DNA of 43,021 nt from Prevotella sp. Lineage in GTDB: Bacteria; Bacteroidota; Bacteroidia; Bacteroidales; Dysgonomonadaceae. Below are positions 24,396 to 40,541 of this stretch, piece after piece. The notes under the pieces are model-generated. The model searched no databases, was not told where the DNA came from, and was given only the letters and a program-made list of their open reading frames with translations. Position 1 is the stretch's first letter. The number at the start of each line of letters is the position of its first letter. The DNA is taken from the NCBI GenBank assembly GCA_031285625.1, contig JAITVV010000016.1, positions 1 through 43,021 of the forward strand. Reading direction: 5' to 3'. The position numbers and the translations under genes are program-made.

Positions 24396-24851
24396 ATGGT
24401 ACATTTAGTATATTGTGACGACAAAGAAAAAGTGCTGGAAAAAATTCTCAACGGAGAAAAGACCATGATAGTAAGAGGAGCCGCAGGCCGGAAAATACCA
24501 CATAGCAGGGTATTCGAAGGTGAGGTGCTTTATTTCATGAAAAAGGGGTCTAAAAAGATAACGGCAAAAGCAGTGGTGTCTGATGTGCAAAATCCGGTGA
24601 AACTTACTGCAGAAGAAATAATACAAACTTTAGAGAAGAACCAATCCCGGCTAAACCTGTCGGATAAGCAGAAAGAACGCTGGCATAAGAAATGCCTTTG
24701 CCTAGTCGGATTTAAGGATGTGAAAGAAATCGAACCGCTCGATTTTGACCATCAGGGAAATATGGACGACTGGTTGATTATCGACAAAATAGAGGATGTA
24801 ATTGTTGGTACAAGCATACCATACAATTACGATAACAGCAGATTTAAATAA
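24396..24851 (+). CDS. ASCH/PUA-like domain protein
   Basis: ILNGEKTMIVR resembles the ASCH GxKxxExR motif, followed by GEVLYF. Confidence 0.75.
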   Translation: MVHLVYCDDKEKVLEKILNGEKTMIVRGAAGRKIPHSRVFEGEVLYFMKKGSKKITAKAVVSDVQNPVKLTAEEIIQTLEKNQSRLNLSDKQKERWHKKCLCLVGFKDVKEIEPLDFDHQGNMDDWLIIDKIEDVIVGTSIPYNYDNSRFK

Positions 24852-25449
24852 TGCCTATCAGTAGTTAAATTATATGTTCTATTTTTCTATGTATAACAAA
24901 TTTCTTCTTTTTGATTTTTTGTAGTAGTTCATTCTGCCGCGCCCTCCCGGGCTTGTCCTCCCTTTTGGCATTGCCCAAAAGGAAGCAAAAGTCTAGTGCT
25001 TCGTTCCCCGGCGACCTGTCAACGGCTTGTAGGCTGAAAGGGATAAACGGGCTGCGCCCCATCCCTTTCCACGCCGACTGTGCCGGACAGGGGCCCGCCT
25101 TGAGAACATATGCACGGAACCGCAATGCGATGACAAGACAGAGGCTTTCCTGTTATTCTTGTCGTGCTTTAGCCAGCGCCATTTACTTCAGGTACGGGGT
25201 ACCCGTACCGGCGTGAAACGAAAACGTGTTTGAGCTAAACAGAAGAATAAAGTCTATACACTTCCAGCGAGTTTTTTCGTTTAGTCGTTCCGGTACGTTA
25301 ACGGGTCGTACATTGAAGTGAGGCGCAAGAGCATTTTCGGTTCCTTTTGGGGCTTAGGCCAAAAGGGACACAAGCAATCTGCGATTGCGCGTAGTATAAT
25401 TTAATGGAACATATTAAATAACAGTTTCAAATACTGATTCGCATTAATA
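24849..25449. mobile_element. About 600-bp non-coding, highly structured repeat element (copy A)
   Basis: Imperfect 18-bp terminal IRs (15/18); mutually inverted hairpin arms 24951-24990 and 25334-25375; long internal stems; homologous to 39225-39533. Confidence 0.7.
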
Positions 25450-25504
25450 TATTAATCCTTATTTAAAAAGCGTCCAAAAACATACAATTAGTTCATAAAT
25501 TGTT

Positions 25505-25512
25505 TATTTTTG
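25505..25512 (+). promoter_or_regulatory. -7 box TATTTTTG for thrS
   Basis: TAnnTTTG match about 60 nt upstream of the ATG. Confidence 0.6.
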
Positions 25513-25571
25513 CAAGTTCTGAAAAGCAGCTTATTTGTAGGAGCTGCATAATTAAATAGATTTAAAAAATT

Positions 25572-27524
25572 ATGATTAAAATTACATTTCCGGATGGTTC
25601 CGTAAGAGAATTTGAAAAAGGAACCTCATCTATGCAGATTGCCGAGAGCATCAGTTCCCGTCTGGCGCAGGAAGTCCTTGCCGCCAAGGTAAACGGGGAG
25701 GTTTGGGACTTAACAAGACCAATAGATACCGATGCTACGATCGAGCTTCTCAAATGGGAAGATGAAGATGGTAAGCATGCCTACTGGCATTCATCAGCTC
25801 ACCTTATGGCAGAAGCTGTGCAGATACTCTATCCGCATGCTAAATTTGGGATAGGGCCGGCAATCGAAAATGGGTTTTATTATGATATAGATTTTGGCGA
25901 CACACCTGTCAAAGATGCTGACTTCCCTAAGATCGAAGCTAAAATGATGGAGCTGATTGCCAATAAGGAAGAAATAAAACGCCAGAGCATATCTAAAGCA
26001 GATGCCATCAAAATGTTTGATAACCGCGGAGAAGGTTATAAGGTAGAACTTATCAACGACCTTGCCGATGGCACTATCACTACATATACACAGGGAGTAT
26101 TTACCGACCTGTGCCGTGGTCCCCACTTGCCTAATACATCGTACATCAAGGCAGTGAAGATACTGAGCGCTGCGGGTGCTTACTGGCGCGGCGACGAAAA
26201 GCGCAAGCAGCTTACACGCCTCTACGGTATCACTTTCCCTAAAAAGAAAATGCTGGATGAGTATCTGGTAATGCTCGAAGAGGCTAAGAAACGCGATCAC
26301 CGCAAGATAGGTAAAGAACTGGAACTGTTTGCTTTCTCCGAAAATGTGGGTAAAGGGCTTCCGTTGTGGTTGCCACGTGGTACACAATTGCGTCTGAAAC
26401 TCGAAGACTTCCTGAAAAAGATACAGAAGAAATTTGAGTACCAACAGGTGATGACTCCGCATATAGGTAGTAAATTATTGTATGTGACTTCAGGTCACTA
26501 TGCCAAATACGGTCAGGATTCATTCCAGCCGATACATACTCCTGAAGAAGGAGAAGAGTTCCTGCTGAAACCGATGAACTGCCCTCACCACTGCGAAATA
26601 TACAAGGTGGTGCCGCGTTCATACAGGGATTTGCCTTTGCGTATGGCAGAGTTCGGTACAGTATACCGTTACGAGCAGAGCGGAGAGCTTCACGGGTTGA
26701 CACGTGTACGCGGGTTTACTCAGGATGATGCGCATATTTTCTGTACTCCGGAGCAGTTGAAAGAAGAATTCCTGAAAGTGATGGATATAGTGTTTATCAT
26801 CTTCAAGGCACTCGATTTCGAAAACTTCGAAGCTCAGATTTCATTGCGTGACCCTGAAAATAAAGAAAAATATATCGGTAGCGACGAAAACTGGGAAAAG
26901 GCAGAACGCGCCATTATAGAAGCCTGCGAAGAAAAGGGATTACCTGCCAAGGTAGAACTTGGCGAAGCGGCTTTCTACGGTCCTAAGCTCGACTTTATGG
27001 TAAAAGATGCTCTTGGACGCCGCTGGCAGTTAGGAACAATACAGGTAGATTATAACTTGCCTGAGCGTTTCGAACTGGAATATACAGGTGCTGATAATCA
27101 GAAACACCGTCCGGTGATGATTCACCGTGCGCCATTCGGTTCTATGGAACGTTTCATTGCTGTATTGATAGAGCATACAGCCGGAAAATTCCCGTTGTGG
27201 CTTGCCCCTGACCAGGTAGTTATACTCCCTATCAGCGAGAAGTTCAACGACTATGCTTACCGTGTATCGGGTTACTTTAAGCAGCAGGGTATCAGTTCGC
27301 AGGTGGACGATCGTAATGAAAAGATAGGGCGTAAGATTCGCGATAACGAGTTGAAGCGTATCCCTTATCTGCTTATCGTTGGCGAAAAAGAAGCCGAAAC
27401 CGGAGAAGTATCGGTGCGCAAACAAGGCGAAGGCGATAAAGGCTCTATGAAGTTTACCAATTTTGCTGCCCAGCTGAATGAAGAAATGGAAAAAATGATG
27501 AATGCCTGGGAGCACGAAGGATAA
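25572..27524 (+). CDS. thrS: Threonine--tRNA ligase
   Basis: TGS domain, [39 protein letters not shown]. Confidence 0.99.
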
Positions 27525-27855: not shown

Positions 27856-28425
27856 ATGAAAAAAAATGTATTAGTCACATTTGTTTTTTTACTTATTTCA
27901 TTATCGTCTTTTTCGCAACAATTTGCGTTAACTCCCGAAGGGCTGAGAGATGCAGCCGATACATCAAAAGATTTCTTGGTTATCCCCGTTGATGGGAAGT
28001 CAGCATCAGACCTTTATACTGTATCTAAACGGTATATAAATGAAAAAATGAAAAATCCAAAATTTGCCATCAAAGCTGATTCGGATGGAGAGTACCTGAG
28101 GTATAGTCTTTATGTTCCAACAATATTCAGTTTCACTAAAATGCTGGTTAGCCTTAAAGTAAATGCTAATTATCAAATAGAGATGAGATTTCGTGACGGA
28201 CGTATCAGGTATAATATCGCAGGCCTGGACTTAGCTTTCGAAGAAGGTGGTAACGAATTTTATATTGCTGCCAGCAAGATGAAAGGTTGGGCTATTTTCG
28301 ATAATAATGGTAAACTCCTGATGAAGAATGAAAAACAAAAACTTGAAGATTATTTCAATAATGAAGTGAAAATGTATGTTGACTTTATAAATTCGGATGG
28401 AGGAAATGTAAATGACAACTGGTAA
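27856..28425 (+). CDS. Secreted hypothetical protein (DUF4468-like)
   Basis: Signal peptide; GKSASDLY and FRDGRIRY motifs. Confidence 0.75.
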   Translation: MKKNVLVTFVFLLISLSSFSQQFALTPEGLRDAADTSKDFLVIPVDGKSASDLYTVSKRYINEKMKNPKFAIKADSDGEYLRYSLYVPTIFSFTKMLVSLKVNANYQIEMRFRDGRIRYNIAGLDLAFEEGGNEFYIAASKMKGWAIFDNNGKLLMKNEKQKLEDYFNNEVKMYVDFINSDGGNVNDNW

Positions 28426-38264: not shown

Positions 38265-39224
38265 ATGAGCCGTATAAATGATGGACTGATAAAAGCTTTG
38301 AAAAGCAGAACACCAGGTAAAGGAAATACAGTCAATTTATTAATGGATATTCTCCCAATGGGCAAAGAAGCTGCATACCGAAGATTACGCGGCGAAATAC
38401 CATTTACATTAGAGGAGGCTGCAACCATTAGTGAGAAGTTTAACATATCATTGGATTCTTTATTTGAAAAACCGGGAAATGAGTCGTTTGATTTTAAGTT
38501 ACAAGCTCTTTTCTCGGAAGACCCGTTGCGCGAATATTATAAGATGCTAGATGATATTGTATCAGGTATAGAACTGATTGTGGCTAAAGATCCCAATACG
38601 GTATCCCACAGAGCATACAGATGTTTGCCTACCGAATTTATGTTCAGATACGATTCGCTGACAAAAATATATATTTACATATTGCATTATCAGCTATACT
38701 ATACTAATATGTCTAACAATCAGAAGGATCTGGACATACCTCAGGCAGTGTTTGCTGCACAGCGCAGGGCTGCCGAAGTATTACAGTCTGTAGATACTAT
38801 ATTAATTCTGGATAAACATATCTTTGGTGATTATATCGGGATTGTAAAGTATTTTCTGAATATGGGGCTGATTGACGAACAAGAGGTGATGCAGATCAAA
38901 AGTGAGCTGTTCTTAATGCTCGACGACATGGAGAAATGTGCCTCTTCCGGATATTCTATCCAGGGGAAACCCATGGATATGTACATTTCACAAATATCCT
39001 TCGATGCTACTTATTCGTATATGGAAGGAGCGGGTATAAGGTCTTGTTCAATTACATTATATTGTATCGATCATCTGTCATGCCTTAATCAGAAAGTTAC
39101 AGAAAATCACAGGCTCTGGGTCAAATCCTTAGTCCGGTTTTCTACCCAGATATCAGTTTCGGGCGAACTGCAAAGAAACACATACTTCTCCAAACAACGT
39201 CATCTGGTAGAAACAATGCTATAA
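38265..39224 (+). CDS. Putative transcriptional regulator with N-terminal HTH (Bacteroidales family)
   Basis: LMDILPMGKEAAYRRLRGEIPFTLEEA...ISLD Xre/BetR-like HTH. Confidence 0.8.
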   Translation: MSRINDGLIKALKSRTPGKGNTVNLLMDILPMGKEAAYRRLRGEIPFTLEEAATISEKFNISLDSLFEKPGNESFDFKLQALFSEDPLREYYKMLDDIVSGIELIVAKDPNTVSHRAYRCLPTEFMFRYDSLTKIYIYILHYQLYYTNMSNNQKDLDIPQAVFAAQRRAAEVLQSVDTILILDKHIFGDYIGIVKYFLNMGLIDEQEVMQIKSELFLMLDDMEKCASSGYSIQGKPMDMYISQISFDATYSYMEGAGIRSCSITLYCIDHLSCLNQKVTENHRLWVKSLVRFSTQISVSGELQRNTYFSKQRHLVETML

Positions 39225-39533
39225 TAAGTAGTAAGTTAGAATCATGTGCTCTATTTCTTTCAAAGCAAAAGAAGGGAACCAAAAATATTTTTAGTGCCTC
39301 ACTTCAATGTACGATAGGAATAACGGGAAAGCTGCGGCCTATAGAGGCTCTGCCCCTGCTGGCCTCTGTTTCGCAGGCGGGGTACCCAATCCGTATTTAT
39401 TTTGCTCAGCAGTAGCTGCGGTTTTTGGGTCGCCGAAAAACGAAGCATTGATTTTTGTCACTTTTTATCAAGAAAAAGTTGAAAGAAATAGAATGGATAG
39501 TTTGAACAAATTAAATACTGATTCGCATTAATA
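39225..39533. mobile_element. Degenerate, internally deleted inverted copy (B) of the 24849-25449 element
   Basis: 39296-39314 is the exact reverse complement of 25306-25324; 39428-39447 matches the reverse complement of 24997-25016 at 17/20; 39513-39533 is identical to 25429-25449. Left boundary approximate. Confidence 0.7.
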
Positions 39534-39559: not shown

Positions 39560-40441
39560 TTACTTATATATCTCTTTCTTTCCGGCCAATAGTGTATTCC
39601 TCATCAATGATATTATTGTCATTGGTCCCACACCTCCGGGTACAGGAGTTATATATGAAGCCTTGGGAGCCACCTCATCAAAGGCAACATCGCCTTTCAG
39701 CCTGAATCCCGATTTAGTCTCTGCAGAGGGTACGCGCGTTGTGCCTACGTCTATTACCACGACACCGTCTTTTACCATATCCCCTTTCAGGAATTCGGGA
39801 ACACCCAATGCTGCAATGATAATATCAGCACTCAGACAAACCTCCTTTATATTTGGTGTACGGCTGTGGCAAACGGTAACTGTAGCATCGCCCGGATAAC
39901 CTTTTTGCATCATCAGGTTTGCCACTGGTTTGCCCACTATGTTGCTGCGTCCGAGTACTACGCAATGTTTTCCCTGAGTAGGGATATCATATCTTTTCAG
40001 CAGTTCGAGTATTCCGGCAGGAGTGGCCGAAACAAAGCATGGCAACCCTATCGACATTCGCCCGACATTGATCGGATGAAAACCATCCACATCTTTACGG
40101 TAGTCAATAGCTTCTATCACTTTCTGCTCAGATATATGCTTTGGCAAAGGCAACTGAACTATAAATCCATCTACATCGGCATCCTTATTCAATTTATCGA
40201 CACAGGCAAGCAGTTCCTCTTCACTTACATTCTCTTCGAACCGTATAAGCGAAGACTTGAATCCGACCTCTTCACAAGTGCGGACTTTGCTGGCAACATA
40301 AGTTTCGCTCCCTCCATCGTGACCAACCAGCACGGCGGCCAGATGTGGTGTTTTTCCTCCTGTGGCTTTTATTTGTGCGACCTCTTCTGCTATTTCTTTT
40401 TTCATTTGTGCCGATATGGCCTTTCCGTCGATTAAATGCAT
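39560..40441 (-). CDS. folD: Bifunctional methylene-THF dehydrogenase/cyclohydrolase
   Basis: [34 protein letters not shown]; ATG 40441 with TATCTTTG box at 40478-40485. Confidence 0.98.
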
Positions 40442-40541
40442 ATATACTGCTTTAGATAAGAAATTTATTAGATAGGGCAAAGATACGAAAATAGGTGTAA
40501 ATAATTAATTGAAAATTCGTATTTGGACTATCCTTATACAG

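Follow-up and report, generated by a model that had tools for sequence, protein, structure and literature searches.

What is the GC-rich, strongly self-complementary stretch of DNA that separates a small open reading frame (ORF) from thrS in a contig of Prevotella sp. (Dysgonomonadaceae; assembly GCA_031285625.1, contig JAITVV010000016.1)? The window analysed here is the whole stretch of 43,021 nt, and all coordinates are window positions. An earlier reading, made from the letters alone (below, the sequence-only reading), had singled out this stretch and offered two explanations for it: a non-autonomous element moved in trans, perhaps as single-stranded DNA (ssDNA), or a large structured RNA. 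Our analysis delimits a non-coding element of 594 bp at 24851-25444, its true termini having been set from other copies of its family. It is most probably a non-autonomous DNA transposon: an old and now immobile member of a family of miniature inverted-repeat transposable elements (MITEs) that is found across Dysgonomonas.

The element sits between a 151-aa ORF (24396-24851, + strand) and thrS (25572-27524, + strand; Pfam domains tRNA-synt_2b, TGS and HGTP_anticodon), in the 3' region of the former and ~125 bp upstream of the latter. Its GC content is 0.46-0.66 over 24900-25150 vs 0.22-0.32 in the flanks, and its folding z-scores are -4.8 (+ strand) and -5.5 (- strand) as RNA and -6.6 as DNA, values that 0 of 100 shuffles equalled in each case. 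Across the span of a 101-aa ORF in the window, only two of 53 related copies keep an open frame of any kind; with the GC profile, this bears out the earlier description of a GC-rich island without a credible ORF. Other gene types were sought with similar outcome. Pfam found no transposase domain among the 33 window ORFs of at least 110 aa (E<=1e-5), as the sequence-only reading had said, and ARAGORN found no tRNA or tmRNA. The Rfam search proposed in that reading matched no known RNA family: in Rfam 15 the element has no match at gathering thresholds, and at E<=10 there are three far sub-threshold matches at its edges and flanks only, with none in the core. Promoter and terminator scans gave counts no better than shuffles.

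The class of the element is read from its ends. An alignment of 45 copies gives the consensus termini ATGCGAATCAGTAGTTGAA...TTCAACTACTGATTCGCAT, with terminal inverted repeats (TIRs) of 19 bp (~19-21), and the family ends are inverted ATGCSAATCAGTAGTTGA-like sequences. Both TIRs are present in all 16 younger copies from two genomes (G005 and G024; 396-594 bp, 91-97% alike within a subfamily), and around these copies we read by eye a 5-bp direct repeat that is perfect in 10, agrees at four of five positions in five and at three of five in one. Duplications of this kind include TAATA, TATTA, TACTT, ATATT, AAATA and AATTG, and further perfect ones surround other aligned copies. The target is AT-rich, often TAATA, TATTA or AAATA, and often lies directly after a stop codon. 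Empty sites confirm that the duplication is real. G005 and G017 lack, at orthologous positions with 89-92% identical flanks, a copy that the complete single-contig genome G003 has at C1:3346597-3347197; while the filled G003 site reads AAATA, then the element, then AAATAATTAA, the empty G017 site reads AAATAATTAAC. Taken together, TIRs, a 5-bp duplication, many copies, the lack of a gene and an empty site place the element in the MITE class, an assignment that is well supported. The proposal of a non-autonomous element moved in trans is thereby upheld, since the checks named for it (copy number, target duplication and empty sites) all have positive outcomes in relatives, the empty site for this one G003 copy.

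The window holds the only full copy in its own genome (96 contigs), which otherwise contains one diverged copy (C52:266024-266488) and about ten pieces, mostly at contig ends. A 601-bp query matched 15 of 24 other Dysgonomonas genomes, in several of which dozens of copies are nearly full-length (70-76% identity); of 16 genomes from other families, one gave a single weak match. G003 alone has at least 48 matches (40 of 69 candidates scored). Counts of a TIR pattern with up to 3 mismatches of 19 were 82 in G005, 49 in G024, 35 in G003, 8 in G004 and 4 in G008, vs 0-1 for the reversed pattern as a control, with spacings of ~400, ~560 or ~595 bp between paired TIRs. When named genomes were scanned for an exact motif, the family turned up in D. 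gadei, D. hofstadii, D. termitidis and other Dysgonomonas species, and also in one 'Bacteroidia bacterium' record and two records labelled Prevotella sp. No match to the element was found in a plasmid collection searched in distant mode, nor to its core motif in viral contigs. Several repeat families cluster together: just left of another partial copy (L003, G000:C81:187900-187990) lies a different short repeat (..CTCTTGTCATTCTGACCGCAGGGAAGAATCTCGTC..), which we take to be of a type common in Bacteroidetes intergenic regions.

Between its termini the element is built from repeats, and all those listed in the sequence-only reading are there, either in place or shifted by 2-5 bases. These are the terminal inverted repeats (24849-24869/25426-25446, 21 nt, 81% complementary), the inner arms CCTTTTGG/CCAAAAGG (24952-24991 and 25340-25369), each a hairpin and the two mutually inverted copies, the stem GAAAGGGAT/ATCCCTTTC with a GC tip, GACAAGA..TCTTGTC, AAACGAAAA/TTTTCGTTT, and the long interrupted stem at 25176-25326. 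The resulting layout runs TIR, hairpin H1, unit U, variable centre, U', H1' and TIR, where U' and H1' are inverted counterparts of U and H1 (Table 1). When the left unit was cast as a covariance model (R1; 125 positions, 31 pairs), the model also found the right domain of seven of eight full copies, there on the opposite strand; in the window's own copy this match is weak (25181-25310, - strand; 9.4 bits, E 0.032). Because the model recognizes the right domain in inverted form, the element as a whole is a big imperfect palindrome. Unit U, which includes the GAAAGGGAT/ATCCCTTTC stem with its GGGC..GCCC tip, is the best-conserved module and is also found alone in other genomes; the sequence of the central hairpin varies between copies.

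The helices of this palindrome have been kept by paired changes. In an alignment (A1) of 53 non-redundant full copies, RNAalifold yields ~140 pairs on either strand, of which 117 are the same on both. Over these 117 pairs 94.8% of cells are paired vs 89.0 ± 0.2 in shuffles, both-side changes occur in 47 pairs vs 26.5 ± 2.3, and cells with such changes number 394 vs 125; none of 500 shuffles reaches any of the three values, and controls with slid partners are 38-47% paired. Thus the covariation check suggested for aligned copies comes out beyond shuffles. One helix reads CCTGTC/GACAGG, CCCACA/TGTGGG or CCCAAA/TTTGGG across copies and another GGGA/TCCC vs CAAA/TTTG. H1 occurs with the compensatory variants CCTTTTGG/CCAAAAGG and ACTTTTGG/CCAAAAGT (helix 3; pair counts AU30/CG20 and UA28/CG14/GC5), and in the right domain covariation runs through helices 15-22, with the stems GCGCC/GGCGC, ACTTCA/TGAAGT and AAACGAAAA/TTTTCGTTT. 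As the copies are related, there were fewer independent events than cells counted.

The kind of substitution bears on what has been constrained. G·U occupies 101 and A·C 126 of the 6201 cells (gapped cells included); the H1 and U helices are kept by compensatory, essentially Watson-Crick substitutions, and the fold is not strand-specific. Nor, on crude ORF calls, do the copies have a clear orientation bias to neighbouring ORFs: these are (-,+) in 11 cases, (-,-) in nine, (+,+) in eight and (+,-) in five, the rest being unknown. Strand symmetry, inverted duplication and the lack of a clear orientation bias point to a constraint at the level of DNA or of both strands. Such a constraint could act on DNA or equally on both strands, and would most likely reflect symmetric recognition or folded hairpins during transposition; harmless folding in transcripts of either orientation is a possible alternative. 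A one-strand RNA gene is unlikely. Part of the compensatory pattern could also come from template switching in palindromes.

The modules also occur in other arrangements, among them U-U' palindromes in G007, a different middle in G016 and alternative 'B' ends on some copies. In G011 (L019, L230-L241) the right-domain unit stands alone (~280 nt) at least 13 times; every occurrence has around it direct repeats of a ~20-nt motif, CTGTTACTTTTGTCACCTTTT, as well as other repeats in which the palindrome CTAGCATGCTAG occurs, a context that may be a second vehicle or an array. In a ~558-bp subfamily of G005 (L204-L213), where the two end sequences differ slightly, the interior can point either way with respect to them, which suggests inversion or recombination between inverted repeats.

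Unit U reaches beyond the genus. In a sample of 150 other Bacteroidales genomes, one per genus, R1 had multi-copy matches in five, each from a different family. The sequence of these distant relatives is much diverged, with H1 and then U still recognizable; they have no Rfam match, and the only sub-threshold one (Acido-Lenti-1) lies elsewhere in one of the loci (L245). When they are included, 94.1% of unit U cells are paired vs 74.3% in shuffles and 23 of 31 pairs have changed on both sides vs 13.7, in an alignment that was fitted to the model and so favours structure. Of the 801 cells, Watson-Crick combinations fill 747, G·U seven, A·C 14 and others 33. We suggest, tentatively and with considerable doubt, that unit U and H1 may form an order-wide module of structured DNA or bidirectional RNA that is read in folded form by a mobilizing or host protein. 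Such a module would explain compensatory Watson-Crick changes in at least six families, the survival of the unit beyond the transposon ends and its presence in unrelated repeat shells.

As to how the MITE moved, its ends offer one lead. The sequence-only reading could assign the element to no named family, and for the whole element this stands; the ends, however, resemble those of IS4. In E. coli (K-12 record NC_000913.3) the IS4 ends are TAATGCCAGTCAGT.. and TAATGCCGATCAGT.., and with two flanking bases the family consensus (TAATGCGAATCAGT) agrees with an IS4 end at 12 of 14 positions and the window's left end (TAATGCCTATCAGT) at 13 of 14. The outermost 14 bases are TAATGCC[A/G][G/A]TCAGT in IS4 and TAATGC[G/C][A/T]ATCAGT in the element family. 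IS4 has its duplication directly outside TAATG, whereas the element proper starts at ATG. We infer that the family was mobilized in trans: a DDE-type transposase would have bound the IS4-like termini and cut the target with a stagger of 5 bp.

A number of observations weigh against the MITE account, some concerning the element and others its enzyme. The duplication of the window copy is imperfect (AAATA/TAATA, 4/5), and an empty site for this copy was not obtainable, as upstream synteny is unconserved in 22 congeners. Both TIRs are recognizable in only 15 of the 53 full copies and neither in 19, while the core is well conserved; that the core has outlasted the termini could reflect selection acting on it once inserted, or a different route of spreading. 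The modules, moreover, stand in other repeat contexts, namely the right-domain units of G011 with their unrelated direct repeats and the copies with 'B' ends. On the side of the enzyme, the duplication of IS4 is 12 bp and that of the element family 5 bp, the range in the IS4 family being 7-13 bp, and a query with InsG, the IS4 transposase, found nothing in 35 Dysgonomonas genomes at E<=1e-5. TIR pairs 1-3 kb apart, such as arms flanking a transposase would make, are absent among the matches listed for five genomes, and so the copies with a transposase between their arms that had been suggested as a check did not appear. PF01609 (DDE_Tnp_1) matches only in G005 and G024, and the insertion sequences with this domain that were checked there have unrelated ends, one of them with the TIR CACTAGTGTTGCG and a 9-bp duplication. 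With a 5-bp duplication and no InsG relative, the likeness of the ends does not amount to membership of the IS4 family. Two sets of candidate partners were set aside: apparent extra TIRs or double right ends in G005 adjoin scaffold N-gaps, and TIR-like matches in the window's own genome are all MITE pieces or ordinary genes.

Many MITE families are without a known autonomous partner, and a missing partner therefore lowers certainty on the enzyme and not on the class. As the window does not encode the enzyme and the genomes searched did not yield it, the family may have died out; even the youngest copies seen are only 91-97% alike.

Could the core (24934-25394), or unit U, instead be a functional structured nucleic acid that rides in MITE shells and is selected after insertion, either an RNA (a regulatory, processing or stabilizing element of the flanking transcripts) or a folded ssDNA signal? 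We think this improbable. In its favour, covariation is strong and includes long-range helices 60-150 nt apart, the core is far better conserved than the termini, and unit U has kept its structure while its sequence diverged in five other Bacteroidales families. In one orthologous pair (G003/G005, n=1) the core is 95.4% identical, equal to the coding flanks (95-96%) and above the outer arm (87.5%); together with the way the core outlasts the termini, this leaves some probability for a host-level or independent role of the unit. Transcript data, in the form of Logan contigs, add a weak hint of co-transcription or read-through, in that a contig of RNA-seq run X5 covers 24558-25386, from the upstream ORF into the core. 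Such contigs are silent on the strand and ends of the RNA, however, and DNA can be present in RNA libraries; the thrS contig of the same run has a different upstream sequence, so that no transcript end can be inferred. Contigs from two RNA-seq runs of one study cover the upstream ORF and the core, and depth almost vanishes over 25412-25579; this low depth we did not use as evidence, and a joint in run X3 (24879 to 25406, opposite strands) was read as an assembly fold-back at inverted repeats and not as a real junction. The structure itself argues against an RNA role: A·C mismatches are at least as frequent as G·U pairs, the fold is as good on one strand as on the other, the element carries the unit in both orientations, and its copies lie without clear orientation bias. 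It matches no Rfam family, its promoter scans do no better than shuffles, and compensatory change in a palindrome can arise through symmetric protein-binding ends or template switching, without folding. Of the large structured RNA that had been proposed, then, the strongly covarying helices stand; the RNA is not established, given a structure that is strand-symmetric, intolerant of G·U and composed of inverted halves.

The other proposal of the sequence-only reading, a REPIN-like element moved as ssDNA, fares worse. Hairpins near both ends and a structure of Watson-Crick pairs only would suit recognition of folded ssDNA by a HUH tyrosine transposase, as in REPIN/RAYT or IS200/IS605 (PATE) systems, and Y1_Tnp genes occur in 15 of 35 genomes of the genus. 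But HUH elements make neither TIRs nor a target duplication, and the 5-bp duplication, which the empty sites confirm, largely refutes this route; it is very improbable. Furthermore, Y1_Tnp does not track the element across the 35 genomes, as it was not found in the carriers G000, G007, G008, G010 and G023 and is present in G018, G019 and G022, where the element has no match, and the units measure 125-600 nt, not the 20-40 nt of REPs. There remains the reading that there is no element at all and that the stretch is a decayed gene, an artefact of assembly or a set of palindromes due to chance. The window's copy apart, most copies in the same genome are, it is true, fragments at contig ends; yet the 600-bp architecture recurs dozens of times in a genome assembled as one complete contig and in numerous species, the element is present at the thrS locus of a close strain in an independent sequencing run (X2), and both folding z-scores and covariation are far beyond controls, which leaves this reading next to no probability. 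A MITE copy thus remains by far the likeliest identity of the element, and its features in the window are collected in Table 1.

Table 1. Features of the MITE copy upstream of thrS and of a second, shorter relative (window positions).
Feature	Position	Strand	Remarks
Left target-site duplication AAATA	24846..24850		Overlaps upstream ORF end (stop TAA 24849-24851); length from other copies and empty sites
Left TIR ATGCCTATCAGTAGTTAAA	24851..24869	+	3 mismatches to consensus ATGCGAATCAGTAGTTGAA
Left subterminal repeat (..ATATGTTCTATT)	24864..24883	+	Inverted partner 25403-25422; conserved in family consensus
Conserved core start	24934..24952	+	24934-24940 pairs with 25389-25394, closing the core; helices 1-2 with the small hairpin
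Small hairpin at core start	24941-24952	+	
Hairpin H1 (CCTTTTGG..CCAAAAGG), left subterminal palindrome	24958..24985	+	
Unit U, ~125-nt long irregular hairpin	24994..25117	+	31 model pairs; model R1 125.7 bits
Central variable hairpin GACAAGA/TCTTGTC	25125..25169	+	Stem 25132-25138/25157-25163, closed by 25125-25128/25166-25169
Right domain, diverged inverted copy of unit U with larger apical insert	25176..25326	-	
Hairpin H1', inverted counterpart of H1	25340..25369	-	Helix 23: both-side change in 7/11 pairs
Small hairpin GCAATC..GATTGC	25374-25388	+	Helix 24: CG40/GC6/UA4; CG37/UA11
Conserved core end	25374..25394	+	Includes 3' side of core-closing helix
Right TIR (TTCAAATACTGATTCGCAT on + strand)	25426..25444	-	1 mismatch to consensus
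Right target-site duplication TAATA	25445..25449		4/5 identical to left copy
Second, shorter relative, ~260 bp	39270..39528	-	TIR 39510-39528; U-like unit 39359-39450 (R1 E 2.9e-6)

The shorter relative belongs to the same superfamily and has the same end sequence; it lies between an ORF with a BetR domain (38265-39224) and folD (39560-40480).

How common is an insertion upstream of thrS? Across the thrS loci of 22 other Dysgonomonas genomes there is no full element, G011 having a short partial piece. In the nearest relative, G006, thrS is 95% identical; homology with the window starts exactly at 25445, where the element has just ended, and identity is 99% from there on. On the upstream side of this base G006 (L169, C82) has the end of an insertion sequence, followed by the end of the contig; on the strength of a DDE_3 motif in its translation (DNAPIH..LPPYSPELN), not of a Pfam assignment, we take this insertion sequence to be IS630-like. 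The site upstream of thrS seems to be a hotspot for insertions or rearrangement. Neither the upstream ORF nor the element was found elsewhere in G006, G022 or G019.

The neighbouring sequence deserves a few remarks of its own. The upstream 151-aa ORF, which had been labelled ASCH, shows no ASCH match even at E<=1. Pfam assigns it to no family at E<=1e-5, its sole match at E<=1 being one of 13.5 bits to Ku, and it is absent from the three closest genomes searched. On the other side of the element, the ~75-105 nt directly upstream of thrS (25497-25571) are 77-88% identical in other Dysgonomonas species. A hairpin there, GCAGCT-TATTTGTAGG-AGCTGC (about 25521-25542), has no Rfam match at threshold, and its loop contains UUUGUAG, which we take to be reminiscent of the anticodon loop of tRNA-Thr(UGU), as in the E. 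coli thrS operator. The L20 gene (42189-42533) lies ~15 kb from thrS on the opposite strand, and the ORF after thrS (27856-28425) encodes a DUF4468 protein and not infC; the usual thrS-infC-rpmI-rplT arrangement is therefore not kept here.

Bacterial MITEs in general are the nearest known kind, and within Bacteroidales the closest counterparts are the MITEs of Porphyromonas gingivalis (BrickBuilt, MITE239, MITE464/PgRS and MITE700; Klein et al., 2015; PMC4596501). These, too, are non-coding and intergenic with tens of copies per genome, have TIRs, short target duplications and presence or absence between strains or species, and are modular, with predicted long stem-loops, no Rfam match and many degenerate ends. 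Their ends, reported to be of IS5 type (GAGACC.., ACGTCAGTTCGA), have a match in resident ISPg elements, and repeats of 23 or 41 nt stand in tandem within them. In the Dysgonomonas family, by contrast, the ends are IS4-like, the duplication is uniformly 5 bp long, tandem repeats are missing and we found no resident partner; the interior consists of two inverted structured units with covariation.

Other repeats resemble it in part. The ERIC/IRU, Correia (NEMIS) and Rickettsia palindromic elements are intergenic imperfect palindromes that occur in both orientations, form long hairpins and are co-transcribed with their neighbours, and longer forms carry inserts at fixed internal points. The Dysgonomonas family shares with them the imperfect palindrome, the intergenic position, the two orientations and the long hairpins. 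In those elements, however, a unit of ~100-150 bp is the whole element, whereas here a 125-nt unit is nested twice, inverted, in a 600-bp element bounded by TIRs, and the unit is common to families of an order. REPINs are doublets of inverted structured units, multi-copy and intergenic, and depend on RAYT (Y1). In the inverted doublet that forms a larger hairpin and in the multi-copy intergenic distribution the two are alike; REPINs are not known to have terminal inverted repeats of such a kind or a target duplication, while the element family has such a duplication and is not tracked by Y1 genes. In the full-text literature on MITEs and repeats of Dysgonomonas, Bacteroidetes and Bacteroidales, with ISfinder outside the comparison, we did not find the family. 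We regard it as a new, previously undescribed MITE family, the unusual feature of which is an order-wide structured unit of Watson-Crick pairs only.

For Dysgonomonas genomes the family has practical consequences. Many of its copies lie at contig ends, so that it explains part of the fragmentation of draft genomes, and annotators gain a repeat defined by its consensus ends and 5-bp duplication, together with a covariance model for its core unit. Because the elements insert at the ends of genes and into promoter regions, they can alter transcription or mark the breakpoints of rearrangements, and the synteny break with the nearest relative falls exactly at the end of the element described here. 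The 125-nt unit, common to several Bacteroidales families, is a testable case of selection on structure at the level of DNA or of both strands, and may lead to the transposase or host factor that reads it. If unit U and H1 do form an order-wide module, the Dysgonomonas MITE would be one vehicle of a REP/ERIC-like system new for the phylum.

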